From: an uncultured Gemmatimonadales bacterium
GTDB taxonomy: Bacteria; Gemmatimonadota; Gemmatimonadetes; Gemmatimonadales; GWC2-71-9
Assembly: GCA_963742755.1 (NCBI GenBank)
Contig: CAVUMU010000002.1
Location: 108,987 to 172,986, forward strand
Direction of reading: 5' to 3'
DNA: 64,000 nucleotides
Of this stretch, positions 19,253 through 43,461 are shown in pieces. The notes below the pieces were generated by a model that was not told the origin of the DNA, made no database searches, and worked only from the letters and a program-made list of their open reading frames with translations. The first letter of the stretch is position 1. Each line of letters begins with the position of its first letter. The position numbers were made by a program, and so were the translations under genes.

Positions 19253-19260
19253 GGGAGCGT

Positions 19261-19329
19261 CGGGAGTCAGGAGACAGGAGTCAGGAGCACTCTCGAACTC
19301 CCGACTCCGCCTCCCGACTCGACTACTCG
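19261..19329. repeat. Heptamer-array inverted repeat, GGAGTCA family (arms 19261-19287 and 19298-19329)
   Basis: CGGGAGTCAGGAGACAGGAGTCAGGAG, loop CACTCTCGAA, then CTCCCGACTCCGCCTCCCGACTCGACTACTCG. Lies between convergent genes. Confidence 0.85.
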
Positions 19330-23184: not shown

Positions 23185-23331
23185 CACAAGCTACTACTAA
23201 TTGTATGTGGTTTTATGGTCGACTCGTGCCGTAGATCACCTGGCTTCGCGCGGTATCCCCGCTTTCCCACGCACCCCTTTTATACTAGACTGTTACCGGA
23301 CAGGTACCGTGTGGCCTCAGCAGGGGACCCT

Positions 23332-23487
23332 ATGTACATCGACCCGACAACGGGCAGCTTGGTTCTGCAGTTCGTCGCCGCTGGCGTGCTTTCAGTACTC
23401 GCTATGGCGTCCCGGGCGCGAGAGGCGCTCAAGACCTTCTTCAAGCTTCTGGTCCCGCGCCGAGGCCGGTGGGCTGGCAAGCCGTAG
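23332..23487 (+). CDS. Possible 51-aa single-helix membrane protein
   Basis: ATG 23332. Sequence MYIDPTTGSLVLQFVAAGVLSVLAMA followed by a basic tail. It sits directly before, and overlaps by 19 nt, the methyltransferase gene. Short, so uncertain. Confidence 0.35.
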   Translation: MYIDPTTGSLVLQFVAAGVLSVLAMASRAREALKTFFKLLVPRRGRWAGKP

Positions 23488-24860
23488 AGGGATCGTTCCG
23501 CGACCCTAGCGGCTTTGTTTATACCCGGGACGGCATCCTCTACCGGCAGGTCAATACCAGCTTTCGTGAGCCCTTCGAAGCGTTTCTCGCTTCGGGGCTC
23601 TACGATGAGCTTGCCCAGGAGGGTTTGCTTGTCGCCCACCGGCAGGTCGGCCTGGATCTCTCCGCCAGTCCCGACGCCTATGCTGTGCTCCAGCCCGAGC
23701 GGGTTGGCTTCATCTCCTACCCCTACGAGTGGTCATTCAGTCAGCTGCAGGATGCGGCTACTCTGACGCTGGACCTCCAGCGGCGCGCCCTGGCGCGAGG
23801 TTTCACGCTGCGGGACAGCAGCGCCTACAACGTCCAGTTCCAAGGGGGTCGCCCGCTCTTCATTGACAGCCTCTCCTTCGAGCCTCTGGAAGACGGGAAG
23901 CCCTGGACGGCCTACAAGCAGTTCTGCCAGCATTTCCTTCTGCCGCTGATGCTCATGAGCACGCGAGACGTCCGTTTCGGCCAGCTGCTGCGTTCGTACA
24001 TCGACGGTATCCCCCTCGACCTCGGTAGCGCGCTCCTGCCTCGCCGTACCTGGGCCAGACTGAGCACCCTGTTGCACATCCATATGCATGCCTGGGCTCT
24101 GGGACGCTATTCCGATACCGCCGTAGGCTCCGCCACGAAGGGTCGGAGGATGAGCCGTCAAGCGTTGCTGACTCTGGTGAAGAACCTGAGTGACGCGACC
24201 CGGCGGTTATCCTGGCGGGCGTCAGGCACTGAGTGGGCGGAATACGTCGACGACAACAATTACACGGCGGCCGCCAGCCAGAACAAGCGCACCATGGTGA
24301 TAGGTCACCTGCGGAGGGTTAATCCATGCACCGTCTGGGACCTCGGCGCCAACACCGGGGAATACAGTCGAGCGGCTCGGGAGGTAGCAGCGCAGGTGAT
24401 CTCCTTCGACGTCGATCCCGCCGCGGTGGAGCGGAACTACCGGCGAGTGCGTGCCGAGGGGGAGGCCGGCCTCCTTCCCCTCTTGCTTGATCTTACCAAC
24501 CCCTCCCCGGCGCAAGGCTGGGGCGGCCGCGAACGACTGTCACTGGAGGAGCGGGGACCGGCGGACGCTGTCCTGGCTCTTGCCCTGGTCCATCATCTGG
24601 CGATCGGACACAACCTGCCGCTGGAACAGATCGCCCACTATTTCGCCCGGATCGGCAGGCATCTCGTTATCGAGTTCGTCCCCAAGAGCGACTCCCAGGT
24701 CAAGCGCCTCCTGCTCAGTCGGCCCGACATCTTTCCGCACTACACCAAGGACGGGTTCGAACAGGCGTTTGCCCGTCACTTCACGATCGAGTCCTCATCG
24801 CCGATCCAGGATTCTGATCGTTGGCTTTACGCCATGTCTTCCCGTGGAGCGGGTGGGTGA
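23469..24860 (+). CDS. Class I SAM-dependent methyltransferase with a roughly 270-aa N-terminal extension
   Basis: 463 aa. SAM motif I VWDLGANTGEYS, followed by ISFDVDPAAVE. Confidence 0.75.
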   Translation: MGWQAVEGSFRDPSGFVYTRDGILYRQVNTSFREPFEAFLASGLYDELAQEGLLVAHRQVGLDLSASPDAYAVLQPERVGFISYPYEWSFSQLQDAATLTLDLQRRALARGFTLRDSSAYNVQFQGGRPLFIDSLSFEPLEDGKPWTAYKQFCQHFLLPLMLMSTRDVRFGQLLRSYIDGIPLDLGSALLPRRTWARLSTLLHIHMHAWALGRYSDTAVGSATKGRRMSRQALLTLVKNLSDATRRLSWRASGTEWAEYVDDNNYTAAASQNKRTMVIGHLRRVNPCTVWDLGANTGEYSRAAREVAAQVISFDVDPAAVERNYRRVRAEGEAGLLPLLLDLTNPSPAQGWGGRERLSLEERGPADAVLALALVHHLAIGHNLPLEQIAHYFARIGRHLVIEFVPKSDSQVKRLLLSRPDIFPHYTKDGFEQAFARHFTIESSSPIQDSDRWLYAMSSRGAGG

Positions 24861-26422
24861 TCGGCCGGTTGCGCCTGCTGTACCCCTTCGTCTTCGCGGT
24901 GTTGCCGCTGCTGAATGTTCTGTCCCGCAGTCCCGGCGGATCGGACCTGTGGGACATGGGACTGATGATTGCCGCCATGCTGGCGATGTGCGGACTGCTG
25001 TACGGACTGGTGCTCCTGCTGGTCAAAGGCCGCCTGGCGAAGCCCGTGGTATCGCTGATCGTGTTCCTGATCATCTTCTGGTTCTACGGCTACAGCCCGC
25101 TGACGCAGGCGGTCCAGGCCGGATCCCCCGGTATGGCGGCCCTGGCGGTCGTGGCGGCGGCCGTGGCGCTGACCATCGGTATGGCCTGGTGGCTGGCGCG
25201 GCGGCCGGCGTTTCTCGATCGGGCCACGACTTTCCTGGCACTCACCTGCACACTTGTGGCTGGATGGATGCTGGCCCAGGCAGCATTACACGGATTCCGG
25301 GCGAGGGGGGCCACTGAGGAGAGTGCGCTCGTCCGAAGGCTGGGGCAGCCCCTGGCCGGCTCACCTGCCAGCACGCCGCGGGCCGGGTCGAGGCAGCGGG
25401 ACATCTATCTGATCATCCTGGATGAGTATGCCAATGGCGCGGTTCTGCGCGAGCGCTTCGGGTTCAACAATCGGGTGTTCGAGGACAGCCTCGCCCGCCT
25501 AGGATTTACCGTGCCCCGGCTGGTCCGGAGCAACTATGTGCACACGCTCCTCTCGCTGCCTTCGCTGCTGAACTTTACCCATCTGACTGTGCTCGCCAGT
25601 GAAGTTGGCCCGCTCGAGACCGACCCCACTCTCCCGAACTACCTGGTCGAGAACAACCGCGTAGCCGCGTTTCTGAAGGCGCAAGGTTACAAGTTTCTGT
25701 TCTTCCCTTCCCAGTGGTGGATCTCTACCCGGCGGAGCCGGAATGCCGACTCCGAGTTCAGGGCGTGGCGCGGATTCCATCCGTTGCGCGACGCCACCCG
25801 CTCCGACCTGCGCCGCTGGCTGGTCCGGGTGACCGCATTACCGTCGAACTACAGCTATGACGCGGACCATGTGAAGCGGACGCTCGAGGGAGTGCGGCAG
25901 GTCGCATCGACGGCTGAGCCGACCTTTGTCTTCGCCCACGTGTTGAATCCCCACCGGCCTATCGTCTTTAACGCCGGCAACTGCCCCGGGCTCCGGCGCC
26001 GGTCGGCGGAAATCGGGGCACCGGGCAAGCAGGACGCGTACATACGGCAGGTCGAGTGTCTCAACGACCTCCTGATCTCTCTGGTCACCGACCTGCTGCG
26101 GAACTCGTCGCCTGCCCCAATCATCCTGCTGGTTGGCGACCATGGAACCAATACGCTGCGCTACTCCAGCGCGAAGGGCGCCGAAACCGTCTCCCCAGCC
26201 CAGGCGCGGGAGCGATTCGGCGCATTCGGCGCGTTCTACTTACCTGAAGCGGGCGGCCGCATCCTGGCAGACTCGGTCACGCTGGTGAACGTGATTCCCA
26301 GGGTGCTCAACCACTATTTCGCCGCACAGATTCCGCTCGCTCCAGATAGTCTCTACATGTCGCTGGAGCAGACCCCGTATCTCTTTGCACCGGTGGACCC
26401 GGCCGCGCTGGATGGAGACTAG
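24857..26422 (+). CDS. Membrane-anchored sulfatase-like / alkaline-phosphatase-superfamily protein (LTA-synthase-like transferase)
   Basis: GTG 24857 overlaps the upstream stop (GTGA). About 5 N-terminal TM helices, then a soluble domain with IYLIILDEYANG and LLVGDHGTN. Confidence 0.7.
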   Translation: MIGRLRLLYPFVFAVLPLLNVLSRSPGGSDLWDMGLMIAAMLAMCGLLYGLVLLLVKGRLAKPVVSLIVFLIIFWFYGYSPLTQAVQAGSPGMAALAVVAAAVALTIGMAWWLARRPAFLDRATTFLALTCTLVAGWMLAQAALHGFRARGATEESALVRRLGQPLAGSPASTPRAGSRQRDIYLIILDEYANGAVLRERFGFNNRVFEDSLARLGFTVPRLVRSNYVHTLLSLPSLLNFTHLTVLASEVGPLETDPTLPNYLVENNRVAAFLKAQGYKFLFFPSQWWISTRRSRNADSEFRAWRGFHPLRDATRSDLRRWLVRVTALPSNYSYDADHVKRTLEGVRQVASTAEPTFVFAHVLNPHRPIVFNAGNCPGLRRRSAEIGAPGKQDAYIRQVECLNDLLISLVTDLLRNSSPAPIILLVGDHGTNTLRYSSAKGAETVSPAQARERFGAFGAFYLPEAGGRILADSVTLVNVIPRVLNHYFAAQIPLAPDSLYMSLEQTPYLFAPVDPAALDGD

Positions 26423-26670
26423 CTGACCTTTGAGGCGCGGGGGCGACTCTTCCGCTTGACCGCCCGTTTGATCTTCGGCGTCCGCTTCCGGATGGCCTTG
26501 GAGATCTTCTTGCCGGCCGTCTTGGCCTTTTTTTTCAGGGCTTTGCCTACGGCCTTTGCCTTGCGGCGCACTCGAGGGTCCTCTGCGGCTTTCCGAATCA
26601 CCTTCTCCAGCAACGCGGTCGTTGCGATTGCAGCGGCGGTCTTCGCCAGATTCCTCTGCTTGCGCGCCAT
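26419..26670 (-). CDS. Small lysine/arginine/alanine-rich basic protein (histone-H1-like composition)
   Basis: ATG 26670, 83 aa: MARKQRNLAKTAAAIATT...KAKAVGKALKKKAKTAGKKISKAIRKRTPKIKRAVKRK. Overlaps the convergent sulfatase-like gene by 4 nt. Confidence 0.5.
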   Translation of the reverse strand: MARKQRNLAKTAAAIATTALLEKVIRKAAEDPRVRRKAKAVGKALKKKAKTAGKKISKAIRKRTPKIKRAVKRKSRPRASKVS

Positions 26671-26777
26671 GCGATCTCCAGGAAGTGGGTGTATCCGAAT
26701 CTCGCATTCGCCGGGCCAGCCGGACGTGAGGACTGTCACAGGGAGGACTATGGGCTACGGGCTCCGACCGGGACCAG

Positions 26778-27716
26778 GTGATTCGAGATGAATTGCACTC
26801 AGCTCTGGCCATGACGCTGCGCGGATTGTGGGCGGTGCTCGGACGTGCGGTCGCCGGGTGGTGGAACGACAACGTCCCCCACCTGGGCGCCGCACTGTCC
26901 TATTACACCCTCTTCTCGCTGGCCCCGATTCTCGTGGTGGCTATTGCGATCGGGGGTCTGGTCTTCGGAGCCGAGGCAGTACGGGGCGAGATCGTCGGCC
27001 AGATCGACGAGCTGGTTGGGCATGATGGGGCCGTAGCGGTACAGGCCATGCTCGAGGGCGCCGCGAAGCCCTCGTCCAGCGTGCCCGCAACCATCATCGG
27101 GATAGTCACCTTCTTCCTGGGAGCGACCGGCGCGTTTCTGGAGCTGCAGACCGCGCTCAACGCCATCTGGCGGGTGAAGCCCAAGGCGAGCAGCAGCTTT
27201 CTTCGATCAGTGTTGATCGACCGCATGATCTCGTTTGGGCTGGTGGTCGGAGTCGGCTTTCTGATGCTCACCTCACTGCTGGTGAGCGCGGGCCTGGCGG
27301 CCCTGCACACCTACATGGGGGAGACCTTCCCCGGCGGAGTGGTTCTGTGGGAAGCGGTGAACGTGATCGTCTCCCTTGGCGTCATCAGCATTCTGTTCGG
27401 TACGGTCTTCAAGGTGTTGCCGGACGTGGAGCTGGCGTGGAGCGATGTGTGGGTCGGCGGGTTGGTGACGGCTGGACTCTTTACGGTGGGAAAGCTGCTG
27501 ATCGGGCTCTATCTGGGCACCAGCGCCCTGGCCTCCTCCTACGGCGCGGCAGGCTCCGTCATCGTTCTCCTGGTGTGGGTCTACTACTCGGCCCAGATCA
27601 TTCTGCTCGGCGCCGAGTTCACCCGGGAATACGTCAAGCAGTTCGGCCGCCGTCCGACTCCCTCCGAGTTTGCCACCAAGGATCCGAGGCCGCCTACCGA
27701 TTCGTTCGGCCCATAA
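26778..27716 (+). CDS. YihY/BrkB-family membrane protein
   Basis: 312 aa. N-terminal hallmark GAALSYYTLFSLAPILVV and C-terminal VWVYYSAQIILLGAEFT. Confidence 0.85.
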   Translation: MIRDELHSALAMTLRGLWAVLGRAVAGWWNDNVPHLGAALSYYTLFSLAPILVVAIAIGGLVFGAEAVRGEIVGQIDELVGHDGAVAVQAMLEGAAKPSSSVPATIIGIVTFFLGATGAFLELQTALNAIWRVKPKASSSFLRSVLIDRMISFGLVVGVGFLMLTSLLVSAGLAALHTYMGETFPGGVVLWEAVNVIVSLGVISILFGTVFKVLPDVELAWSDVWVGGLVTAGLFTVGKLLIGLYLGTSALASSYGAAGSVIVLLVWVYYSAQIILLGAEFTREYVKQFGRRPTPSEFATKDPRPPTDSFGP

Positions 27717-28275
27717 ACTTCTCACCTTCCGAGGGGGTAAAGGCACGCATCCGCTGGAGCAGGGCGCCGGGGCTCGACTCCACGATGATGGCGTTCCGAT
27801 GCGCCTCGGTCAGGAATCCCTCCCGTACGGCGTGGTCCAGAAACCCGGTCAGCCCGTTGAAGTAACCCTCAACGTTGAGAATTCCCGAGGGCTTGGCGTG
27901 AATCCCAAGCTGCCCCCAGGTGAGAATCTCGAAGAAGCCTTCCAGGGTCCCGATTCCGCCGGGCAGGGCGATAAATCCATCAGACAGGTCGGCCATCTGG
28001 GATTTTCGCTGATGCATCGAAGCCACGACGATGAGGTTGCGGATGCCGGTATGCGCCGCCTCCTTCTCCACGAGCTGCTGGGGGATGATCCCGGTGACGT
28101 GGCCGCCGTGCTCCTGGACTGAGTCGGCCAGTTGGCCCATGATCCCCACACTCGCTCCGCCGTACACCAGCTCGATTCCCTCTTGTGCAAGGACCTGCCC
28201 CAGCTGGCGGGCAGCGGCCCCATAGGCCGGCCGCGATCCAGGGTTGGTGCCGCAGAACACACAGATCCGGTTCAT
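27694..28275 (-). CDS. LOG-family cytokinin riboside 5'-monophosphate phosphoribohydrolase-like protein
   Basis: 193 aa. ICVFCGTNPG...LVYGGASVGIMG...PGGIGTLEGFFE motifs. Confidence 0.9.
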   Translation of the reverse strand: MNRICVFCGTNPGSRPAYGAAARQLGQVLAQEGIELVYGGASVGIMGQLADSVQEHGGHVTGIIPQQLVEKEAAHTGIRNLIVVASMHQRKSQMADLSDGFIALPGGIGTLEGFFEILTWGQLGIHAKPSGILNVEGYFNGLTGFLDHAVREGFLTEAHRNAIIVESSPGALLQRMRAFTPSEGEKFMGRTNR

Positions 28276-28308
28276 CTCTCAGTACCCATCCGGTGGCCTC
28301 GTTCGGGA

Positions 28309-28418
28309 GAGTCTAGGGTCGAGGGTCTGGAGTCTACGCTCAAACCTGCGGATTGCATACATTGCGACTCTTGAATCCTGGCTCTACACCTCGACTCTAG
28401 ACGCTAGACTCTGGACCA
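28309..28418. repeat. Heptamer-array inverted repeat, GAGTCTA/GGGTCTR family (arms 28309-28336 and 28384-28418, 47-nt spacer)
   Basis: Left arm GAGTCTA GGGTCGA GGGTCTG GAGTCTA. Right arm CTACACC TCGACTC TAGACGC TAGACTC TGGACCA. Lies in the divergent LOG/AKR gap. Confidence 0.9.
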
Positions 28419-28437
28419 GAATATACGGAGATCGCAG

Positions 28438-29424
28438 ATGCAAAGGCGTACGCTGGGCCGTGAAGGGTTGACGGTCACGCCCCTGGGTCTCGGTTGCATG
28501 GGAATGTCGGAATTCTATACCGGCCGGGACGACGAGGAGTCGATCGCGACCATCCAGCGGGCGCTCGACCTCGACGTCGACTTCCTCGATACCGCGGACA
28601 TGTACGGCCCCTTCAGCAACGAGCGCCTGGTAGGCCGGGCCATTCGGGGGCGCCGGGACCGGGTGGTGCTCGCCACAAAGTTCGGGAACCAGCGGGGCGA
28701 GGACGGCAGCTTCCTCGGGGTGAACGGGCGGCCGGACTACGTGCGCAAGTCCTGCGACGGGTCGCTGCAGCGCCTTGGGGTGGACCACATCGATCTATAC
28801 TATCAGCACCGGGTGGACCGCACCGTCCCGATAGAGGAGACGGTCGGCGCCATGGCCGATCTCGTGCGGGCCGGGAAAGTTCGCTACCTCGGGCTTTCCG
28901 AGGCCGCTCCCGGCACCATTCGCCGGGCCAACCAGGAGTACCCTATCAGCGCGCTTCAGACCGAGTACTCCCTGTGGACCCGCGATCCCGAGGACGATGT
29001 CCTGCCGCTCTGCCGAGAGCTCGGTATCGGGTTCGTGGCCTACAGCCCGCTGGGGCGCGGCTTTCTCACTGGACGGTTCCGCACCTTCGAGGACCTTCCG
29101 GAAGGGGACTACCGGCGCAACTCGCCCCGCTTTCAGGGCGAGAACTTTCAGAAGAACCTCGATCTGGTAGACCGGGTGGAGGAGATCGCCAGGCGGAAGC
29201 ACTGCACTCCGGCACAACTCGCCCTGGCGTGGCTGCTGGCTCAGGGGGACGACATCGTCCCCATCCCGGGCACCAAGCAGCGGCGGTATCTGGAGGAAAA
29301 CCTTCGGTCCCTCGAGGTCGGGCTGTCGCCGGCCGACCTGGAGGAGATCGAGGAAGTGGCACCGAAGGGGGCGGCTGCCGGCGACCGCTACCACGAAGCT
29401 GGAATGAAGACCATCAACGGATGA
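28438..29424 (+). CDS. Aldo/keto reductase
   Basis: 328 aa. [32 protein letters not shown] and [13 protein letters not shown] motifs. Confidence 0.9.
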
Positions 29425-29436
29425 CCGGCTCGGTGT

Positions 29437-29883
29437 CTAACCTGGGAGGTCACTCCTCGGCTCGGAGATGGCCTCCACGATGCGGCCAACTTCCCGGTCG
29501 CTCGCGGCACCGTCCTCCCGGGCAATGTCCGCCTGCGCGACGATCCCCACGAGCAGGCCATCGACATCGACGACCGGAACCCGGCGCACCTGTTGCTCGA
29601 TCATAACCTGCCGCACATCCTCGATTTCGTCTTCCGGCATGGAAGTGATGGGATCGTTGGTCATGAGGGCACGGACCGGCGCGTCGGGCCCCAGTCCGGC
29701 TGCCAGGCCTCGGATGGCCAGATCGCGGTCGGTCACCGTTCCCACCAGACGATTGGTGGCGGTGTTCTCGACCACCGGGATGGAGCCGCAGTCGTTGTCG
29801 CGCATGAGGATTGCCACCTCTCGGGCGGTTCGCTCCGGTGTACAGCTGACCGGGTTCGGGGTCATGATCTGCTTTACTCTCAC
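29437..29883 (-). CDS. CBS-domain pair protein
   Basis: GTG 29883, preceded by GGAGGA at 5-nt spacing. 148 aa, with two CBS repeats (VKQIMTPNPVSC..., ALMTNDPITS...). Confidence 0.8.
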   Translation of the reverse strand: MRVKQIMTPNPVSCTPERTAREVAILMRDNDCGSIPVVENTATNRLVGTVTDRDLAIRGLAAGLGPDAPVRALMTNDPITSMPEDEIEDVRQVMIEQQVRRVPVVDVDGLLVGIVAQADIAREDGAASDREVGRIVEAISEPRSDLPG

Positions 29884-30023
29884 TGTGTCCTCCCGATTGT
29901 AAGATCCCCCCAATTTGGTGTGCTGCTGCACCCGCGCGGTGACCTGCGTAACTTTGGGGCGCCATCAGTTACCTGGTGAGCCGAGGCGCCGGCTTCCCGT
30001 GGGTCTTGGAGGAGTGAGTCTGG

Positions 30024-30506
30024 ATGAGCCTTCCCGGCGAGGTCCTTCAGGGCATTCTGGCGCGCGGGGCGTTGGTGCTCTTGCGGGTGTACCTGGGGGT
30101 GATCTTCCTCGTCGCCACACTGCCGAAGCTACAGCACGATTTCACGCCTCATCTCATAGGATTCGTCCAGCAGGTCGGACTGGAAAGAGGCCATCCCTTC
30201 TACCAGCAGTTCCTCGAGCGGGTGGTACTGCCCAACGCCGCGTTTTTCGCGGCTCTGGTCACCGGTTCCGAGCTGTTCGTCGGGGTGACCCTCATCCTGG
30301 GCCTGATGACCCGAGTCTCTGCGTCGGTGGCGCTGACCCTCGCCCTGAATTACATGTTCGCCAAAGGGGCATGGTTCTGGACCCCATCCAGCAACGACGC
30401 GGCCTTGGTCGCCATTGCCCTGGCCCTGCTCATAGGGGCGGCGGGGCGAACGCTGGGACTGGACTCCTTCCTGGCCCGCCGGTGGCCGCGGTCGCCGCTC
30501 TGGTAA
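30024..30506 (+). CDS. DoxX-family membrane protein
   Basis: 160 aa with four hydrophobic helices. LRVYLGVIFLVATLPKL is a typical DoxX N-terminus. Confidence 0.7.
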   Translation: MSLPGEVLQGILARGALVLLRVYLGVIFLVATLPKLQHDFTPHLIGFVQQVGLERGHPFYQQFLERVVLPNAAFFAALVTGSELFVGVTLILGLMTRVSASVALTLALNYMFAKGAWFWTPSSNDAALVAIALALLIGAAGRTLGLDSFLARRWPRSPLW

Positions 30507-30603
30507 GTGAGAAGTAAGAAGTAAGAAGTGAGAAGTGAGAAGTGAGAAGGGTGGCTGGGGGGCCCTCTCACTGCTCACCTCTCACTTCTCACTTCTCACT
30601 TCC
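30507..30603. terminator. Heptamer-array hairpin (GTGAGAA family) filling the whole convergent gap; probable bidirectional terminator
   Basis: Six units GTGAGAA/GTAAGAA (30507-30548), loop GGGTGGCTGGGGGGCCC, and five units TTCTCAC-type (30566-30599). By hand pairing, about 33 Watson-Crick pairs over about 38 positions. Confidence 0.7.
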
Positions 30604-30604
30604 G

Positions 30605-32773
30605 CTACGCAACCCCGAGCACATCCAGCATAAACGCATACTTGAACGCGATCTCACGCAGAAAATCGAAACGCCCGGACGCTCCGCCGTGCCCCGCTCC
30701 CATGTTAGTTCGCAGGAGGAGCCGGGCGCCGTTAGTCTTGGTGGCGCGCAACTTCGCGGTCCACTTGGCGGGCTCCCAGTAGGCCACGCGCGGGTCGTTG
30801 AGCCCGGCCGTCACCAGCATGTGGGGGTAGTCCTTGGGCTCGATGTTGTCGTACGGGGAGTAGGAGCGGATGTACTCGTAGGCCGTCCGCTCGTTCGGGT
30901 TCCCCCACTCGTCGTACTCGATCACCGTCAGGGGCAGCGTGGCATCGAGCATGGTGTTCACCACGTCGACGAAGGGGACCTCCGCCAGCACGACCCGGAA
31001 CAGGTCGGGCCTCAGATTGGTCACCGCGCCCATCAGCAAGCCACCGGCGCTGCCTCCGTTGATGGCCAGCCGATCGGCGGAGGTGTAACCTGCTCCGACC
31101 AGGTGCTCGGCGCTGGCGATGAAATCGGTGAAGGTGCTGCGCTTGTTCAGCAGCTTGCCCCCTTCATACCACGGCCGTCCCATCTCTTCCCCGCCGCGGA
31201 CGTGGGCAATGGCCACCACGAAGCCGCGATCGAGAAGGCTCAGCGTGTTCGACGAAAACGCGGGGTCATAGCTCAGGCCATACGCTCCGTATCCGTTGAG
31301 CAGGAGTGGCCGCGCCCCATCCAGCTGGAGTGGAGCCCGGTAGACCAGGGAGATCGGCACGCGCTTTCCATCGGCCGCGCTGGCCAACACCCTCTCGCTC
31401 TGGTACAGCGACGGATCGTAGCCGCCCAGCACTTCGGTCTGCTTGCGCACCATCCAGGTTCGCTCCCCCATGTCGTACTCGACGACCGAGCTGGGAGTCA
31501 CCAGGGAGGTATAGGTGAAACGCAGGAGCGTGGTCTCGAACTCCGGATTTTCGTGGGCACGAAAGGTGTACACCGGCTCCGGGAAGCGGACGAGATGCTC
31601 CTCGTTCGACGCCAGTTCGACCACCCGGATCTGGCGCAGTCCTGCTTGACGCTCGTACACCACCAGATGGGACCGAAAGGCGTCCGTTTCGTCCAGCTTG
31701 ACGTCCGGCCGGTAGGGCAGGACCGGCGACCAGTTGGCTTTCGAGGGGCTCGACACTGGAGCCTGGACCAGTCGAAAGTTTGGCGCGGAGTCATTCGTGG
31801 TGATGAAGAAGCGCTCATCGTGGTGCTCTACGCTGTACTCGACACCAGGCTCTCGTGGCTGGACGACCCGAAACTCGCCCTCGGGCTCATCGGCATTCAG
31901 AAAACGGACCTCGGACGTCGAGTGGCTGGTGATGTCGAGAAGCAGATACCGGCGGCTCCGGGTGCGATTGATGTCCAGGAAGAACGACTCATCCGGTTCG
32001 AAGTACGCCAGCGCATCTGTAGTTGGACTGGCCCAGACCGTGTGGCGGTAGAGCCGGGCGGGGCGATGAGCATGATCCAGTAGGGTGTAGAAGAGCGTGC
32101 GGCTGTCGTTAGCCCAGGTGACTCCTGACGTCCTTCCAATGCTCTCCGCCAGCAAGCGTCCGGTGGTCAAGTCCTTGATGTAGAGCGTGAACTCCTCGGA
32201 CCCCGAGGTATCGACCGAGTAGGCGAGGAGCCGATGGTCCGGGCTTACCTCGCTGACCCCGATCTTGAAGTAGGCGTGGTCGGCCGCGAGCGGATTCTGG
32301 TCGAGCAGGACTTCCTCCAGAGCCTCCAGACTCCCATGCCTCCGGCAAAAGATGGGGTATTGCCCGCCGGTCTCCGTTCGGGTGTAGTAGAAGTAATCGT
32401 CCACCCGCTCGGGCACCGACAGATCCGTCTCTTTGATCCGCCCCCGCATTTCCTGGTAGAGCTGTTCCTGGAGTCCCTCGGTATGCTTCATGACCTCGCC
32501 GGTGTAGCGATTCTCTGCCTCGAGATAAGCCATGACCGCGGGATCGTTCCGGTCGCGGAGCCAGAAGTAATCATCGATTCTGGTCTCACCATGCAGCGCG
32601 TGGATCCGCGGCTCCACTCGGGCGACCGGCGGAACGAGCTCCTCGGCCACCAGGCGCGGCGGTCGGTCGGTCTCGTATTCGATGGGTGGGGCCGAGGGAC
32701 GATAGGGCGATGCCAGTTTATGGCTGGGATTCGACGACATTGCGGTTTTCTGTCCTTGGCGGCCTGGGTCCAC
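30605..32773 (-). CDS. ptrB: S9A prolyl-oligopeptidase-family serine peptidase, oligopeptidase B-like
   Basis: 722 aa. N-terminal beta-propeller region (DDYFWLRDRNDP) and catalytic serine motif INGGSAGGLLMG. The true start may be the internal Met (MSSNPSHK). Confidence 0.85.
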   Translation of the reverse strand: MDPGRQGQKTAMSSNPSHKLASPYRPSAPPIEYETDRPPRLVAEELVPPVARVEPRIHALHGETRIDDYFWLRDRNDPAVMAYLEAENRYTGEVMKHTEGLQEQLYQEMRGRIKETDLSVPERVDDYFYYTRTETGGQYPIFCRRHGSLEALEEVLLDQNPLAADHAYFKIGVSEVSPDHRLLAYSVDTSGSEEFTLYIKDLTTGRLLAESIGRTSGVTWANDSRTLFYTLLDHAHRPARLYRHTVWASPTTDALAYFEPDESFFLDINRTRSRRYLLLDITSHSTSEVRFLNADEPEGEFRVVQPREPGVEYSVEHHDERFFITTNDSAPNFRLVQAPVSSPSKANWSPVLPYRPDVKLDETDAFRSHLVVYERQAGLRQIRVVELASNEEHLVRFPEPVYTFRAHENPEFETTLLRFTYTSLVTPSSVVEYDMGERTWMVRKQTEVLGGYDPSLYQSERVLASAADGKRVPISLVYRAPLQLDGARPLLLNGYGAYGLSYDPAFSSNTLSLLDRGFVVAIAHVRGGEEMGRPWYEGGKLLNKRSTFTDFIASAEHLVGAGYTSADRLAINGGSAGGLLMGAVTNLRPDLFRVVLAEVPFVDVVNTMLDATLPLTVIEYDEWGNPNERTAYEYIRSYSPYDNIEPKDYPHMLVTAGLNDPRVAYWEPAKWTAKLRATKTNGARLLLRTNMGAGHGGASGRFDFLREIAFKYAFMLDVLGVA

Positions 32774-33011
32774 CGGGCAGGTGTTAAACGAGTGGACCCC
32801 AAAGTAGGCCCTGGGGGTGAATTACGATCCCCCGGGCCCCCAAGTCAAGTATGAGTTAAGTGTAAGAGCTACAATCTGTTAGGAAGGCAATTGTAACCGA
32901 GGATAGGCCTCAGATTTCGGGCCAGGCCGACCGAAGCCCGGATCTTGGGTCCCAGTTTGAAGATACAGACCCTGCGTGGTCCGCAACCCTTGCCCGGGAC
33001 GATTTAGGGCT

Positions 33012-33623
33012 CTAGCGGCAACCCCGCATCTCCTTGCGCTCCAAGAAGCTGGGGCTTTTTGCGTCGGCAGCGGGCACCACGACCACGTCCACCGGCTGGG
33101 TCAAAGAGGCAGTAGTCATACAGTTTGGCCCCGGGGTGCGTTCCACAACCTCCACTGTCAGCTGGCCGTCATTCTGAGTTACCCGGTCGATCACGATCTC
33201 GTAGCCTCCGGTCGGGCGTTGGCCTGCAGCCACCGCGATGACCACATCCCGGTTGAAGTCTACCGACGGCCGATCTCCCACTCCCAACTCCGACCAGAAC
33301 TGGGCCCAACCGTTGGCGTCCCGGATAACAAGCCGCCGAGATTCACCGATGCCGGTCCGGGTCCATTGCCCAATTCGGCGGATGTCCAGGGTTCGGTTGT
33401 TCCCGTAGGAGGCATAGCCCTGCTCCGAGGGGGCGGCGGCTACCGATGCGGTATCGGATCCCGGGGCCACGGCAGGGGACGGCTCCTGCGACGGGGTGGG
33501 GGCCAACGCCACCGGGTCCCTGGCGGTGCCATCGCCGCCCTCGGACACGCGGATGGTGCGCCCGGCGCCACAGCCGCTCAGCGCCGCAATCGAGATAACC
33601 AATGCGAAGGTTCGGGGGATCAT
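33012..33623 (-). CDS. Lipoprotein with PrcB-C-terminal-like domain
   Basis: 203 aa. Lipobox IAALSGC. C-terminal segment AGQRPTGGYEIVIDRV...LTVEVVERTPGPNCM resembles the PrcB_C fold family. The family call is tentative. Confidence 0.5.
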   Translation of the reverse strand: MIPRTFALVISIAALSGCGAGRTIRVSEGGDGTARDPVALAPTPSQEPSPAVAPGSDTASVAAAPSEQGYASYGNNRTLDIRRIGQWTRTGIGESRRLVIRDANGWAQFWSELGVGDRPSVDFNRDVVIAVAAGQRPTGGYEIVIDRVTQNDGQLTVEVVERTPGPNCMTTASLTQPVDVVVVPAADAKSPSFLERKEMRGCR

Positions 33624-33718
33624 GGGGGCTCCGTCTTCCGTCGGATGGATGGGATTGTGACTCCGATAAAGCTAAGCGAATCGGCTGCTCGCCGCGGACG
33701 TCGGCATCCCGTTGTCAC

Positions 33719-33734
33719 TGTGATCCAGATCACA
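33719..33734. promoter_or_regulatory. CRP/FNR-type operator: TGTGATCCAGATCACA
   Basis: Perfect 7-bp arms TGTGATC/GATCACA. This is the TGTGA-N6-TCACA geometry and differs at one central base from the classical symmetric CRP consensus TGTGATCTAGATCACA. Located in a 228-nt divergent gap. Confidence 0.5.
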
Positions 33735-33851
33735 CACGGTGATTAGGGTCACAGCCTCCCGACAGGGCGATTGATAGGGTGTAGCCGCTCTACCAACACG
33801 AAGCACGGGCCCAGGTGCAGTTGGGCGTGTTCACTCATACCGAGGGTGCTT

Positions 33852-34604
33852 ATGACGAAGCTCAGAGGACTTTACGCCGGCCTGTTAGCCGGCGGCGCGG
33901 TACTTCTCGCGGGTGCTTGCAAGGACAACCGTGACACTGGTGCAGTGAACACCAAGACGGCGGAGGGCACTTCCAGCGCCCCCGCGGGCGATATGGCGGA
34001 GAACCGGGATATTGCGCTCGTCCGGGTCATCAATGCGATTCCAGCGGGCGGGCCGGTGGCCATCCTGGCGGGCGACAGCGCGGCCTTTTCCGGCGTGGAC
34101 TACAAGACGGCTACCCCGTTTCGGGAAATCCGGGACGATCGGCTCAACTTCAAGCTCGGCTCGGCCGAAAATCCCCTGGCTGAAAACCGGGAGAATCTGA
34201 ATGGCGGCGGCCACTATACGATTGTCGCCATGCCGGACGCGGGCGGAGCCGACAAGCGGAACCTGCGCGTCCTCGATGACGACCTGAAGCCCGTGACGCC
34301 GGAAAAGGCCCGGGTCCGGGTGATCAATGCGGTCCCGGGAGACCTGGAAATCAGCGTCTTTGTCAGAGGCCGGGAAGACGCGCTGTTCGACGGCGTGAAC
34401 TTCAAGAGCGAGGCTGGCTGGGATGAGATCGATCCGGTCGCCGGTACCTTGGAGATCCGTCCAGAAGGCAAGAAGAATGTTCTGGCCAGCCTGCCAAATG
34501 TGAAGTTTGAGGGTGGGAAGAGCTACACCTTCGTGGTGGCCGGCACGCCGGCCAAGCCGGAAATCATTAAGGTCGAGGATGATGTAGCCCAGAGCACGAT
34601 GTAA
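33852..34604 (+). CDS. DUF4397-domain secreted/lipoprotein
   Basis: ATG 33852, 250 aa. Lipoprotein-type signal (LLAGAC). Two repeats of the DUF4397-type pattern (VRVINAIPAGGPVAI..., VRVINAVPGDLEISV...). Confidence 0.7.
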   Translation: MTKLRGLYAGLLAGGAVLLAGACKDNRDTGAVNTKTAEGTSSAPAGDMAENRDIALVRVINAIPAGGPVAILAGDSAAFSGVDYKTATPFREIRDDRLNFKLGSAENPLAENRENLNGGGHYTIVAMPDAGGADKRNLRVLDDDLKPVTPEKARVRVINAVPGDLEISVFVRGREDALFDGVNFKSEAGWDEIDPVAGTLEIRPEGKKNVLASLPNVKFEGGKSYTFVVAGTPAKPEIIKVEDDVAQSTM

Positions 34605-34608
34605 CAAA

Positions 34609-34635
34609 GACGGAGAAGACGGAGAAGGCGGAGGG
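34609..34635 (+). repeat. Purine-rich 9-mer tandem array (GACGGAGAA GACGGAGAA GGCGGAGGG), 5 nt after the stop codon
   Basis: Read directly. Same unit family as 54926-54990 and 57844-57879. Confidence 0.85.
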
Positions 34636-34661
34636 GTCCGGCGCGGCCCCCCCGCTTTTTT
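34633..34661 (+). terminator. Intrinsic terminator (GC stem + T6)
   Basis: GGGGTCCG gcg CGGCCCC stem (one bulge), followed by CCCGCTTTTTT. It overlaps the end of the 9-mer array. Confidence 0.65.
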
Positions 34662-34779
34662 CTGTTCTGGCCCCCGTCCCCACCATCCCTTCTCCCCTCT
34701 TCCCGTCCGCGCTTTCCGGCCGCATCATATGTCGCGTCTTATGGAACCTCCCAGCGCAGTTGTCCTCAAGGAGATCGCG

Positions 34780-35367
34780 ATGAACCTCGTCGAACGCGTC
34801 AAGCGGATCCTGCTGTCACCTCAGAGCGAGTGGGAGGTTATTGCTGCAGAGCCCACTACTACGGCCGACCTGTATACGAAGTACATCGCTCCACTCGCGG
34901 CGATCGGACCGGTCGCGCAATTGATCGGCTTCTCGGTTTTCGGCGTTTCCCTCCCCGGACCCAATTACCGCGTTCCAATCGGAGCCGGTCTCACCTCAGC
35001 GATCGTGAGTTTCGCGTTGGCCCTGGCGGGTACCTACGTGCTGGCCCTGATCATTGATGCCTTGGCCCCCACGTTTAACGGCCAGCGGAGCCAGGCTCAG
35101 GCCTTGAAAGTCGCCGCGTACTCCAGCACCCCCTACTGGCTGGCCGGGATCTTTGCGCTCTTGCCGGGGTTGTGGATTCTTTCGCTACTGGGACTCTACA
35201 GCGTCTACCTGCTGTATCTCGGCCTTCCGGTGCTGATGAAGGCCCCGCGCGACCGGGCGTTGGCCTACACCGGAGTCGTCATCATTGCGGGAATCGTGCT
35301 GGGCATCGTCATCAGCACCATAGCTGGCTTCTTCCTGAGGGTGCCGGGGTACGGCATGACGATGTGA
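34780..35367 (+). CDS. Yip1-domain (DUF1282-like) membrane protein
   Basis: ATG 34780, preceded by AAGGAGA. 195 aa. N-terminus MNLVERVKRILLSPQSEWEVI plus five hydrophobic helices. Confidence 0.7.
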   Translation: MNLVERVKRILLSPQSEWEVIAAEPTTTADLYTKYIAPLAAIGPVAQLIGFSVFGVSLPGPNYRVPIGAGLTSAIVSFALALAGTYVLALIIDALAPTFNGQRSQAQALKVAAYSSTPYWLAGIFALLPGLWILSLLGLYSVYLLYLGLPVLMKAPRDRALAYTGVVIIAGIVLGIVISTIAGFFLRVPGYGMTM

Positions 35368-35470
35368 TCGCGAGTGTCGGGCGGGGACGGGGATCACAGC
35401 CCCGGCGCCCGTCCTGCATAAGATTCCTCCATTGCCCCGTCATGTGGACCCGTGAACCGAGGATCATCCG

Positions 35471-36976
35471 ATGACTCGTCGTTCAGCCCCTAAGCTGTTA
35501 CGCCTGCCCGCTTTTGCGCTCTTTCCTTCGCTCCTGATCGCAGGCCTCGGGGCCGGCCTGGTGGCCGGCCCTCTGGGCTGCGCACGCAACCCGGTCACCG
35601 GCAAGAGTGAGCTGTCTCTGGTCTCCGAGTCCCAGGAGATTCAGATGGGGCAGGAGGGGGCCAAGGAGGTGGCCCGGTCTATCGGCTTTTACGATGACGC
35701 GAAGGTGCAGTCGTACGTTGCGGATATCGGCAAGCGGATGGCGGCCCAATCCGAGCGGCCCAATCTGCCGTGGGAGTTCCACGTGGTGGATGACGCCTCG
35801 GTCAACGCCTTTGCCATCCCAGGCGGCTTCATCTACGTCACCCGTGGGCTGATGGGCTCCATTAACACCGAGGCGGAGCTTGCTACGGTGGTGGGACACG
35901 AGATCGCTCACGTCACCAATCGCCATTCCGTCCAACAGATCAGCAAGGCGCAGCTGGCTCAGCTTGGTCTGGGTATTGGCAGCATTCTCTCCTCCGACAT
36001 CGCCAAGTTCGGGCAGTTGGCGGGCGCAGGGCTCGGCCTGCTGTTCCTCAAGTACGGCCGGGATGCGGAGAACCAGGCCGACGCGGGCGGCTTCCGCTAT
36101 GCGCTGGGTCAGAATTACGACGTGAGAGAAATGCCGAAGGTGTTTCAGACCCTGGATCGGATCAGCGGGACAAGCGGCGGAGGGAGGCTGCCGGAGTGGC
36201 TCGCTACTCACCCGAATCCGGGTAACCGGATCAAGCACATCGAGCAGATGCTCGATACGACGGCGCTGGCTCAAAAGAAACTGATCGTTGACCGGGAGGA
36301 TTACCTCCAGCACGTGCAGGGCATGTCGTTCGGGGAGGATCCGCGCCAGGGCTACTTCGAGGGGAATACCTTCTACCATCCGAAGATGCGGTTTCAGCTG
36401 AAGTTCCCGGATCAGTGGAAGAAGCAGAACATGCCCCAGGCGGTTGTGGCGGTCAGCCCGAGCGAGGATGCCATCATCCAGCTCGCGCTGGCGGGCCAGG
36501 CATCGCCCGAACAGGCCGCGACGCAGTTCCTCTCCCAGGAGGGAGTGCAGGCCGGGAATGCCTCACGGAGCAGCATCAATGGCTTGCCCGCGGCGTCGAG
36601 CTACTTCCAGGCCCAGACCGAGCAGGGCCGGATCGAGGGGCTGGTTTCGTTCATCTCGTACGGTGGGCAGACCTTTGGTCTGATGGGCTACACGCCGGCG
36701 GGGAAGTTGAGCAGCTATGACCAGGTCTTCCAGGGCACTATCCGCAGCTTCACCGAGCTTCGGGACCAGTCGAAGATCAATGTTCAGCCGGCCCGGATCG
36801 AGCTGGTGAAGGTGCCGCGTCAGGTGACTCTAGCTCAGTTCTATTCTCAATACCCCTCATCGATTCCGATCGAGGAGGTGGCGATCATCAACGAGCTGGA
36901 AGGGCCGGACTCCGTGATTCCCGCGGGACGGACGGTAAAGCGGGTGGTGGGGGGACGTCCGGCAGGATCGTCCTGA
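35471..36976 (+). CDS. M48-family zinc metalloprotease (periplasmic/lipoprotein type)
   Basis: 501 aa. Signal/lipobox (GPLGC) and HExxH motif VVGHEIAHVTNRH. Confidence 0.85.
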   Translation: MTRRSAPKLLRLPAFALFPSLLIAGLGAGLVAGPLGCARNPVTGKSELSLVSESQEIQMGQEGAKEVARSIGFYDDAKVQSYVADIGKRMAAQSERPNLPWEFHVVDDASVNAFAIPGGFIYVTRGLMGSINTEAELATVVGHEIAHVTNRHSVQQISKAQLAQLGLGIGSILSSDIAKFGQLAGAGLGLLFLKYGRDAENQADAGGFRYALGQNYDVREMPKVFQTLDRISGTSGGGRLPEWLATHPNPGNRIKHIEQMLDTTALAQKKLIVDREDYLQHVQGMSFGEDPRQGYFEGNTFYHPKMRFQLKFPDQWKKQNMPQAVVAVSPSEDAIIQLALAGQASPEQAATQFLSQEGVQAGNASRSSINGLPAASSYFQAQTEQGRIEGLVSFISYGGQTFGLMGYTPAGKLSSYDQVFQGTIRSFTELRDQSKINVQPARIELVKVPRQVTLAQFYSQYPSSIPIEEVAIINELEGPDSVIPAGRTVKRVVGGRPAGSS

Positions 36977-37634
36977 TTCGTTCGAAGACCCCGTGCCACA
37001 TGGCTCGGGTGAGCCGCCCGGTATTGGTGTTCTGCCGACTGGGATGAAACGAGGAGATCAGGATGGTGCCGTCTTCCAGCCTGGTCTCCTCGCCGTGCGC
37101 GAAACGTGGCCGATGGCGCGGACCGAGCCGGTCCCACCAACCCGCGGCGCGCAGCCACTGCTCCCACCCGATCCTCCCCAGCGCCAGCACCACCCGCACC
37201 GATCGTAGCTGCGCCAGCTCGGCCTCGAGAAAGGGCCGGCAACGGGCCAGCTCTTCAGGAGTGGGCCGATTATCCGGCGGGGCACAGCGCCCCGCTGACG
37301 TGATGTAGCAATCGGTAAGTATCAAGCCGTCATCGCGAGAGCGTGAAACAGGAAGATTGGACCAGCCATACTGATGGAGCACCCCGTACAGCCATTCGCC
37401 ACTGGCATCGCCGGTAAATGCCCGGCCAGTGCGGTTGCTGCCGTGGGCTCCAGGTGCCAGGCCCACGAGAAGGAGCCGGGCCTCCGGATCACCGAACCCC
37501 GGCACCGGCCGCCCCCAGTACTCCTCAGTCGAAAAGGCTCGCTTTCGAGCGAGTGATATCTCCCGGCAGTGGTCTCGCAGCCGGGGGCAGAGCGCGCAGC
37601 TGGTGATGCGGTCGGCCAGGAGGGAGAGCGACAT
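36888..37634 (-). CDS. Uracil-DNA glycosylase superfamily protein (family 4/5, UdgB-like)
   Basis: 248 aa. CALCPRL, GLAPGAHGSNRTGRAFTGD and SFHPSRQNTNTG motifs. Confidence 0.8.
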   Translation of the reverse strand: MSLSLLADRITSCALCPRLRDHCREISLARKRAFSTEEYWGRPVPGFGDPEARLLLVGLAPGAHGSNRTGRAFTGDASGEWLYGVLHQYGWSNLPVSRSRDDGLILTDCYITSAGRCAPPDNRPTPEELARCRPFLEAELAQLRSVRVVLALGRIGWEQWLRAAGWWDRLGPRHRPRFAHGEETRLEDGTILISSFHPSRQNTNTGRLTRAMWHGVFERIRTILPDVPPPPALPSVPRESRSPALPAR

Positions 37635-37649
37635 CTAGGTCTCGCCCCC

Positions 37650-38111
37650 CTAGTCTGGCAGGCGAAGCAGTAGGCGATCCCGGCTGCCTGCCGCTATTGG
37701 TTCGATCTGGGCAAAGATGGTCAGCGGTTCTCCCCGATCCGGTGCGCAGGCGAATGGGACCAGGCCCCGCACCTCGATCGTGGCACCGTCCTGCTCCATG
37801 ATCCAGGATCCAGCCCGCCGCCCCTCTCCTCGCGCCGCACACCGTCCGGCCACGCGCACCCGACGGCCCAGCAGGCTGTCTGTCGTCAGCGCCTCGCGCA
37901 GCTGCACCAGTGGAGCCTGCTCGGCCCGGACCGGCACCCGCCGCACCGGAGTCTCGGATGTTCTCCGGCGTGACCCTCCCCCCTCGGCTACCACCCCGGG
38001 TTCGGACCGCGGGTCGGGCACCGGCCTGGTGCTTCCCGTCCCGGGAGTTGAGCCGGTTCGGGGGCTGCAGCTGCCAAGGGAGAGGAGGATGAAAGGGACA
38101 AGATTTCGCAT
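37650..38111 (-). CDS. Hypothetical lipoprotein
   Basis: 153 aa. Signal plus lipobox (ILLSLGSC), a low-complexity linker, then a compact C-terminal domain. No family recognised. Confidence 0.45.
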   Translation of the reverse strand: MRNLVPFILLSLGSCSPRTGSTPGTGSTRPVPDPRSEPGVVAEGGGSRRRTSETPVRRVPVRAEQAPLVQLREALTTDSLLGRRVRVAGRCAARGEGRRAGSWIMEQDGATIEVRGLVPFACAPDRGEPLTIFAQIEPIAAGSRDRLLLRLPD

Positions 38112-38131
38112 GGCGGCTCCAGGCAGCGCGG

Positions 38132-39421: not shown

Positions 39422-39424
39422 TTA

Positions 39425-39609
39425 GAAAGGTCTAGGGTCTAGTGTCAGGGATCGAAGCATAACCTTCATTTGTATTGATAACGTCTAGGAGACGGGTTCA
39501 CCATGGTGCGCCGGTTAAGTCCAGATCCTAGACTCCTGGACCCTGGACCCTGGACCCTGGACCCTGGACCCTAGGCCCTAGACTCCAGACTTTAGACTCT
39601 AGACCTTTC
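39425..39609. repeat. Heptamer-array inverted repeat, GGTCTAG/CCTGGAC family (left arm 3 units 39429-39449, right arm 12 units 39521-39604)
   Basis: The right arm includes five perfect CCTGGAC copies (39535-39569). Terminal 18-bp inverted repeat 39425-39442 / 39592-39609 (11 perfect bp GAAAGGTCTAG/CTAGACCTTTC, then 5 Watson-Crick and 2 G-T). AT-richer 70-nt centre. Confidence 0.9.
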
Positions 39610-39613
39610 CGCC

Positions 39614-43401: not shown

Positions 43402-43429
43402 CAGGGCCATGCGTCTCGCAGTCCGACGG

Positions 43430-43461
43430 GCCCCGAGCATCGCTCGGGGCTCGTTCGTTTC
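43430..43461 (+). terminator. Intrinsic terminator
   Basis: GCCCCGAG catcg CTCGGGGC (8-bp perfect stem), followed by TCGTTCGTTTCC. Confidence 0.55.

Follow-up and report, generated by a model that had tools for sequence, protein, structure and literature searches.

Facing heptanucleotide repeat arrays fill the space in which a DoxX/DoxD gene and an S9 oligopeptidase gene converge in a Gemmatimonadales genome

The stretch of DNA analyzed here, referred to as the window, comprises 64,000 nucleotides (nt) with a G+C content of 64.5% and stems from the metagenome-assembled genome (MAG) of an uncultured Gemmatimonadales bacterium (GCA_963742755.1, contig CAVUMU010000002.1, positions 108,987 to 172,986). 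The gap of 98 nt (30507-30604) that separates the convergently transcribed genes for a DoxX/DoxD-family membrane protein and an S9 family oligopeptidase is filled by an element built from heptamers. We consider this element to be, with fair probability, an inverted pair of heptanucleotide simple sequence repeats (SSRs), (GTRAGAA)6/(TYCTCAC)5, that has been shaped by slippage and by exchange between its arms and that provides both messenger RNAs (mRNAs) with an incidental 3' stem-loop. It is neither a conserved gene-specific signal nor marked as a discrete transposon. It belongs to a class of rapidly changing repeats that has already been described from other bacteria; new are the phylum, the non-quadruplex unit and the unusual cleanness of the example. 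The most informative result of our analysis is a compact natural series of alleles at one and the same site, which runs from empty through 2 units, 3 facing 5 units and 6 facing 5 units to 17 facing 7.4 copies, and which further includes a flipped allele, hairpins made of other units, and loops with a nested insert. The element and the two genes that enclose it are arranged as follows.

30024-30506, + strand: DoxX/DoxD-family membrane protein gene (TAA stop 30504-30506; Pfam DoxD 3.5e-12, DoxX 4.2e-11)
30507-30548, + strand: 5' purine-rich arm of six units (GTGAGAA, GTAAGAA, GTAAGAA, GTGAGAA, GTGAGAA, GTGAGAA)
30549-30565, + strand: G-rich spacer (loop) of 17 nt, GGGTGGCTGGGGGGCCC
30566-30602, + strand: 3' pyrimidine-rich arm, the reverse complement of the 5' arm, with five TCTCACT-type units at 30566-30600
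30605-32773, - strand: S9 family oligopeptidase (oligopeptidase B-like) gene (stop 30605-30607; Peptidase_S9_N 3.8e-103, Peptidase_S9 1.8e-65)

A preliminary description of this stretch had resolved the gap of 98 nt into six units of GTGAGAA/GTAAGAA, a loop of 17 nt and five TTCTCAC-type units, and all of these components are present. The final codons of the DoxX gene, TGG TAA, are in phase with the first repeat unit (GGTAAGT GAGAAGT ...), and the homologous DoxX genes end in TGG-TAA, TGG-TAG or TGG-TGA. The units of the 3' arm follow each other in the order TCTCACT, GCTCACC, TCTCACT, TCTCACT, TCTCACT, after which TCCG closes the gap; the stop codon of the peptidase gene, which converges on DoxX, lies 4 nt from the element. 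Tandem Repeats Finder (TRF) delineates the 5' arm at 30505-30549 (period 7, 6.4 copies, 94% matches) and the 3' arm at 30566-30602 (period 7, 5.3 copies, 86% matches), two arrays that stand 16 nt apart and in which the unit of one matches the reverse complement of the other with 0 mismatches. The stem of about 38 positions that had initially been paired by hand is recovered by an inverted-repeat finder with arms of 40 nt (30511-30550 and 30563-30602) that are 88% complementary, and six further, shifted registers, among them one of 23 nt at 100% and one of 32 nt at 91%, bear out the expectation that a long stem survives a change in register. The GGG and CCC ends of the spacer can lengthen the stem, leaving a loop of about 9-12 nt. 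The purine-rich arm holds TGA or TAA stop codons in all three frames.

Several other identities of the element were considered and set aside. The loop contains just three runs of at least three G, so that no canonical G-quadruplex can be formed by it. An assembly artefact is contradicted by the occurrence of the same architecture in independent assemblies and in the isolates Hymenobacter piscis, Lamprocystis purpurea and Pseudoxanthomonas composti. Readings as a CRISPR, a riboswitch, a small open reading frame (ORF) or a tRNA-like structure are incompatible with an inverted array of perfect period.

The sequence between the two stop codons was read in about 30 relatives, which were drawn from contigs with homologues of the peptidase and from a metagenome scan with DoxX; labels such as L001 denote these homologous or scanned loci. 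Short-period inverted arrays recur at the site, and in each of them the 3' arm reverse-complements the 5' arm, irrespective of the unit. Hairpins of the GTGAGA type are found, in addition to that of the window, in L002/L132 (shorter, GTGAGAG-type), L146 (tiny), L161 (degenerate) and L130, the loop of which contains an insert of some 100 nt. In L129, GTAAGCG/GTGAGCG units (17.0 TRF copies) face CGCTCAC/CGCTTAC units (7.4 copies), GCTGGGA faces CTCCCAG in L148 and L143, and ATAGCCA/GGCTATG units are present in L003/L004 and L140. A hairpin of the 9-mer GGGAAGGAC occupies the site in L133, and the contig of L142 ends inside an array of the same 9-mer. In L141, two units of the GTGAGA type can be recognized by eye in one arm and none in the other. 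Short gaps without any array are found in L134-136, L138 and L147, and the site is empty in L001 (4-nt gap), L127/128/131 (6 nt) and L139/144/152 (no gap). As the relatives with a gap of 0-6 nt possess no hairpin, this structure is dispensable for both genes. In two further relatives with a peptidase identity of 86-88%, the peptidase and DoxX genes are separated by a gene for a GT4 glycosyltransferase (L005 12156-13382, L006 9877-11103), so that whole genes, too, have been gained or lost at this junction.

Slippage is evident from differences in the number of units between orthologous alleles (TRF arm copies of 6.4/5.3 in the window, 5.4/3.1 in L002 and 17.0/7.4 in L129), together with blocks of identical variant units. 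In a rough neighbor-joining tree of the DoxX coding sequence, the window groups beside L132 (88% nucleotide identity), followed by L001, whose site is empty, and then by L129, and L139 (no gap) is paired with L148 (hairpin). Tree neighbors thus differ in the presence of the hairpin, which points to gains or losses on short time scales.

The allele of L002 gives a particularly close view of such changes, as its orientation is the opposite of that found in the window. With the genes set in the same orientation, the spacers read GGGCCCCCCAGCCACCC in the window and AGGGTGGCTGGGTGGCT in L002, and they share 14 matches when one of them is flipped vs. 5 when it is not; an alignment of the whole elements scores 51 flipped vs. 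15 unflipped. The arm with the GTAAG variants lies on opposite sides in the two alleles, and the flanking coding sequences are 85-87% identical. We counted the 11-mer GGGTGGCTGGG of the loop 6 times across related and unrelated loci totaling 1.12 Mb, where about 0.5 occurrences are expected. Among the hairpin spacers examined, it is confined to the window and L002/L132 (three hits, one in L063 and two in L102, were not inspected), and common descent is therefore the simplest relation between the two elements. The simplest explanation of the flip itself is an inversion, in which either the outermost repeat units were exchanged or the template was switched during replication, with re-insertion in the opposite orientation as the alternative. 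The boundaries of the element differ between the two alleles as well: at 12194-12205 of L002, the array takes the place of the last three codons of the peptidase gene, encodes the residues EGER* there and thereby provides the TGA stop. A target-site duplication is not visible.

The reading that we favor can be put into a simple sequence of events. The arrays would lengthen and shorten through replication slippage, and the complementarity of the arms and their flips, both of which are observed across alleles, would be owed to recombination or to a switch of template from one arm to the other, to selection that favors pairing, or to both; the entire element can shrink to a few bases. As both of the converging mRNAs contain the element at their 3' end, the hairpin should be present in both transcripts, and each mRNA that reaches it would fold a very stable multi-register hairpin of about 40 bp, 0-4 nt past its stop codon. 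Repetitive extragenic palindromic (REP) elements and 3' stem-loops act as exonuclease barriers and pause sites. The hairpin would most likely act in the same way, making RNA polymerase pause and hindering 3'-to-5' exonucleases, thereby defining or stabilizing the 3' ends, and it might also slow the release of ribosomes at the abutting stop codons. The element is not a canonical intrinsic terminator, and any effect that it exerts is dispensable.

Folding calculations are consistent with a strong structure in both transcripts. The plus-strand RNA folds with -60.8 kcal/mol (z -7.5) and the minus-strand RNA with -67.9 kcal/mol (z -11.4), values that in either case none of 200 shuffles attained. 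The minus-strand RNA forms the better helix because the two GTAAGAA variants are engaged in G-U pairs there, whereas they give rise to A-C mismatches on the plus strand. For the DNA we obtained -31.1 kcal/mol (z -6.4), with the best structure contributing only 0.7% of the ensemble because many registers are possible. A stable stem-loop is thus found just 3' of a gene, as in an intrinsic terminator, and it is not followed by a U-tract, the sequence after the stem being TCCGCTACGC on the plus strand and TTACCAGAGC on the minus strand. The symmetry of the element and its lack of a T-tract, both of which had been pointed out beforehand, hold true; on neither strand is the stem followed by a run of T. 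The element was not called in a scan for consensus terminators (22000-41900). Likewise, Rfam yielded 0 matches in the window at the gathering threshold; the hits at E <= 1, generic eukaryotic microRNA-precursor hairpins scoring 17-38 bits against thresholds of 47-200, were rejected.

The element is not an isolated case in this genome, and its description as one example of a recurring type is borne out by 14 period-7 arrays in the window and many inverted pairs. Shuffles that preserve dinucleotides give 2.0 +/- 1.6 such arrays; periods 8, 10 and 11 are not enriched, whereas periods 9 and 12 are, largely within coding sequence, so that among the periods that are not multiples of three an excess is found for period 7 only. 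Dimers of GTRAGAA occur 16 times (0.02 expected) and fall into three loci (10653-10811, 30507-30602 and 45126-45212). About a quarter of the intergenic regions of the window carries a period-7 signal, and among these regions the hairpin at 30507 is the strongest (z -8.8). The other heptamer elements of the window are listed here.

10653-10811, + strand: GTGAGAA-family element between tandem plus-strand genes (GTGAGAA x3, 106-nt insert, CTTCTCA x4)
17470-17536, + strand: heptamer hairpin in a convergent gap (GTGAACG-type arm facing GTTCACT x3)
19259-19322, + strand: heptamer hairpin in a convergent gap (GTCAGGA/TCCCGAC units)
28382-28417: direct CTCTAGA-type array
39429-39604, + strand: inverted pair of heptamer arrays in a divergent gap (GGTCTAG x3 facing CCTGGAC/CTAGACC x11 across a spacer of about 80 nt)
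45126-45212, + strand: GTGAGAA-family element between tandem minus-strand genes (GTAAGAG/GTGAGAA/GTAAGAA arm, spacer of about 32 nt, TTCTCAC-type arm)
60349-60433: GGGGCAG x4 facing GCCCCGCG x3 across 34 nt between divergent genes (arm periods 7 and 8)

At the first of these loci, the array (10655-10668) supplies the TGA stop of the ORF at 9568-10665. The spacer of the pair at 39429-39604 holds an AT-rich stretch that looks like the place of two promoters, which would put pyrimidine-rich arrays into both 5' leaders. The GGGGCAG arm at 60349 is able to form a G-quadruplex, unlike the element in the DoxX/peptidase gap.

Beyond the window, a scan for exact (GTGAGAA)3 with one genome per species returned at least 120 stretches. 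Among the matches listed are members of the Gemmatimonadota, Acidobacteriota, Planctomycetota, Verrucomicrobiota, Bacteroidota, Latescibacterota, Gammaproteobacteria, Cyanobacteria and Firmicutes, including isolates of Hymenobacter, Lamprocystis, Pseudoxanthomonas and Flavobacterium. Many of these matches are solitary arrays in which the unit drifts along the array from GTGAGAA to GTGTGAA, GGCAGAA or GTGGGAA, and many others are hairpins like the one studied here. Hymenobacter piscis NST-14 (L022) is a culturable carrier of GTGAGAA hairpins, as is Lamprocystis purpurea DSM 4197 (L047), which has three hairpins within 8 kb. Across the same 1.12 Mb, 428 arrays had a period of 7, compared with 107 for period 8 and 50 for period 6, with the qualification that at least 120 of the 428 had been preselected by the GTGAGAA scan. 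Neighboring period-7 arrays form inverted pairs (at most 1 mismatch) in 69 cases vs. direct pairs in 9.

The orientation of these pairs is strongly biased. Of 97 loci for which 300 nt were available to either side, 19 have a TTCTCAC partner downstream of the GTGAGAA array and 0 have one upstream (p = 3.8e-6), a polarity that extends over many phyla, and the purine-richer arm comes first in 61 of the 69 inverted pairs; most of the 8 pairs with reverse polarity have near-balanced units, and the rest come from a single multi-array locus, L049. It follows from this polarity that purine arrays stand after stop codons and pyrimidine arrays before start codons in any arrangement of genes. At many of the loci L007-L126, the array ends, on its pyrimidine strand, 5-20 nt from a start codon, the usual place of a Shine-Dalgarno sequence. 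The 61 unique heptamer inverted pairs, 49 of which could be classified by gene context, are found between convergent (13), tandem (23) and divergent (13) genes; hence, there is no concentration at convergent gene ends, and the split is roughly what random intergenic placement would give. Solitary GTGAGAA arrays lie beside stop codons of the sense strand in 39 cases vs. 10, or in 23 vs. 10 when only stops outside of the array are counted. This test is confounded because the purine strand has stops in all frames and the pyrimidine strand none, and we give it no weight.

Cyanobacterial tandem heptanucleotides are known as short tandemly repeated repetitive (STRR) sequences, and Mazel and co-workers reportedly described intergenic heptamer repeats in Calothrix in 1990. 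PMC4692102 mentions three tandem heptanucleotides from Calothrix PCC 7601. Long SSRs of 5-11 nt, chiefly heptanucleotides, are over-represented in many bacteria, the heptanucleotides most strongly so, and polymerase slippage was proposed as their cause (Mrazek et al. 2007, cited in both PMC4692102 and PMC4679880). The closest counterpart that we found is provided by the GGGAATC arrays of Xanthomonas campestris and X. axonopodis, which are intergenic and consist of 2-26 units of 7 nt (Rehm et al. 2015, PMC4692102). About 185 such arrays exist per genome, 70-75 pairs of which are "in convergent orientation", always combining a plus-strand array with a minus-strand array that follows it closely; the pairs lie nearer to the upstream ORF, and their length and sequence vary between species while their type is preserved (PMC4692102). 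The element described here corresponds to this arrangement in that a plus-strand array is followed by a minus-strand array of the same unit, with the purine/G-rich arm first, the ability to form a stem-loop, and a position close to the upstream ORF. It differs from it in that GTGAGAA lacks any run of three or more G and thus fails as a quadruplex-forming unit, in its phylum, Gemmatimonadota, and in the coexistence of several unit families; moreover, complete loss, a flip in orientation and replacement by other units are seen at its site.

Heptanucleotide SSRs in general are matched by head-to-tail units beyond chance, an over-representation of period 7 that is intergenic, a variation in unit number at the same locus, arrays that abut the starts and ends of ORFs, a scattered phylogeny, and, as in the known cases, the dominance of one or a few units in each lineage. 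Unlike these mostly solitary direct repeats, the array in the DoxX/peptidase gap has a facing complement and hence a hairpin of about 40 bp; among the 170 sets of TAACTGA arrays of the Beggiatoaceae, there is one inverted repeat (PMC4679880). Bidirectional intrinsic terminators exist between convergent genes (Ju et al. 2019, as cited in PMC13613805). The element resembles these in being a symmetric, tail-to-tail hairpin that can form in both transcripts, and it differs from them by the lack of A- and U-tracts, a stem that is 3-4 times longer, about 43% G+C, and the absence of conservation. The REP elements and bacterial interspersed mosaic elements (BIMEs) of enterobacteria and pseudomonads are extragenic, reside in the 3' ends of mRNAs and stabilize the upstream mRNA. 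Our element is likewise an extragenic imperfect palindrome at gene ends whose presence is variable, in contrast to which REP units have 20-40 nt, a sequence that is fixed in each genome, a conserved 5' tetranucleotide, a REP-associated tyrosine transposase (RAYT) and no 7-nt periodicity. A literature search for GTGAGAA/TTCTCAC returned nothing relevant, the one bacterial paper among the results (PMC8161180) dealing with repeats of 52 nt and 20-21 nt in Bacillus.

Several points weigh against our explanation of the element as slippage-shaped repeats. Neutral slippage alone leaves the strict purine-first polarity (19:0; 61:8) unexplained. Nor does it explain why a few unit families (GTGAGAA, GTCTAG-like, GCTGGGA) turn up at many loci, and GTGAGAA in many phyla; some sequence- or orientation-specific force is unaccounted for. 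The role that we propose for the hairpin at the RNA level is inferred, the classification of the inverted pairs by gene context is heuristic, and the DoxX tree of 483 nt only leaves it uncertain whether loss or gain occurred at individual nodes.

It had been proposed that the element could terminate both converging transcripts. Bidirectional termination is possible, and one could envisage a selected bidirectional terminator that operates without a U-tract, the stem forming stepwise as the U/C-rich 3' arm is transcribed so that each heptamer provides a weak release point. We regard such a terminator as an unlikely explanation. It would account well for an extremely stable and symmetric element that fills a convergent gap, as well as for the fact that the three tight heptamer hairpins of the window (17470, 19259 and 30507) are all located in convergent gaps. 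Purine/A-rich 5' arms and U/C-rich 3' arms on both strands match the A-tract/U-tract polarity of known bidirectional terminators, so that the purine-first order is also the polarity to be expected of this class. Furthermore, canonical hairpin-plus-T-run sites stay at chance level between positions 22000 and 41900 (13 found vs. 11.8 expected), and other 3'-end signals must therefore exist. Intrinsic hairpins that lack a U-tract are, however, poorly terminated at by the polymerases of E. coli and mycobacteria, and the element lacks this very tract. In addition, several close relatives manage with 0-6 nt and no hairpin between the same two genes, and 13 of the 49 classified inverted pairs are found between divergent and 23 between tandem genes.

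A more general proposal holds that purine-first heptamer hairpins, instead of being debris of slippage, form a functional class present in many bacterial phyla, be it as U-tract-independent, multi-register bidirectional terminators or insulators, or as arrays for a protein with a footprint of 7 nt. We judge this to be quite unlikely. If true, it would explain why a few units recur across loci and phyla, why the arms stay complementary while the unit changes, and why the opposite polarity is missing among strongly purine-skewed units, L049 excepted; in the variant in which the units are read by a protein, some process would have to spread them between loci.

That the element is a small non-autonomous mobile element, akin to miniature transposable elements with inverted repeats (MITEs) or REPs, which inserts at gene ends or hairpin sites in either orientation, appears very unlikely to us. 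Its presence and absence at one site and its opposite orientation in the sister lineage would be readily understood in this way, as would the existence of the GTGAGAA family at three loci within 64 kb and in many phyla. A second motif, TCATCCTGAGCGAAGCGAAGGA, is nested in the loops of several such hairpins, and loops thus do receive insertions. Against this stands the finding that no two loci have a common loop or fixed ends, with the three GTGAGAA loci of the window differing in both spacer and arm length. Neither a target-site duplication nor a clean relation between empty and filled sites exists, given the different boundaries in the window and in L002, the numbers of units differ between arms, and units drift gradually along arrays as they do in the evolution of SSRs. 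The genes called around the locus in relatives include no transposase, and in the window the Pfam scan covered the four nearest genes only.

Finally, the heptamers might form a protein-binding array in which the 7-nt period is set by a protein, each monomer of which takes up one unit of single-stranded RNA or DNA, or by a nucleoid protein bound to the duplex, and in which the hairpin would be secondary; an OB-fold protein with a cold-shock or S1-like domain would be a candidate binder. The constancy of the period across loci and phyla while the sequence varies and the pyrimidine-rich arrays just upstream of start codons at many loci fit such a view, as does the binding of heptamers by CspB with one protein per unit (PMC4679880). 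We nevertheless hold it to be highly improbable, since the unit sequences are too diverse for a single specific binder, 9-mer arrays occupy the same place in some relatives, and the element is dispensable at its site.

The origin and the function of bacterial heptamer repeats are unsettled in the literature, and it is in this context that the alleles at the DoxX/peptidase site are of interest. They suggest two testable rules, namely that the arms always co-vary and that the purine arm always comes first. Should these rules hold genome-wide, they would constrain models for the origin of the repeats, and a direct test of the terminator idea would become possible. If, alternatively, the element is slippage debris only, it advises caution in annotation, as a striking hairpin in a convergent gap is then not necessarily a terminator.

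The genes around the locus are ordinary housekeeping genes, and their order (PrcB_C, S9 peptidase, DoxX, CBS protein, aldo-keto reductase, LDcluster4/Lysine_decarbox protein, BrkB) is kept in relatives. An exact-protein look-up of the DoxX protein, the peptidase and P0001 of the window gave no record, probably due to start codons that were called differently, and homologues were used instead. For the peptidase, a 100% identical protein was found, and its nearest named homologues are annotated as oligopeptidase B or S9 peptidase in MAGs of Gemmatimonadales.

Two ordinary G+C-rich hairpins without a clear T run follow gene ends elsewhere in the window, at 43402-43466 (GGGCCCCGAGC-ATC-GCTCGGGGCTC, region z -3.2) and at 7558-7623 (GCGCCGTCC-TCCG-GGGCGGCGC, region z -6.5), and this may be the usual form of 3' stem-loops in this genome. 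A 9-mer array, GGAAAGGCG x5.4, lies in a convergent gap at 54936-54984, next to a TCATCCCGAGC-like sequence (54985-55030); it belongs to the family that forms the hairpin at the DoxX/peptidase site of L133, and the same array is present in L142. The motif TCATCC(T/C)GAGCGAAGCGA(A/G)GGA, which has a GCGAAGC mini-hairpin as its core and no match in Rfam, is found in the window at 10686-10780 (10733-10754 on the minus strand) and also in L003 (20988-21009), L022 (5987-6084), L130, L133 and L143. Singly or as an inverted pair, it resides within the loops of heptamer or 9-mer hairpins of Gemmatimonadales and Hymenobacter piscis, and it gives the impression of a small element of its own, one that either inserts into such arrays or has them on its flanks.

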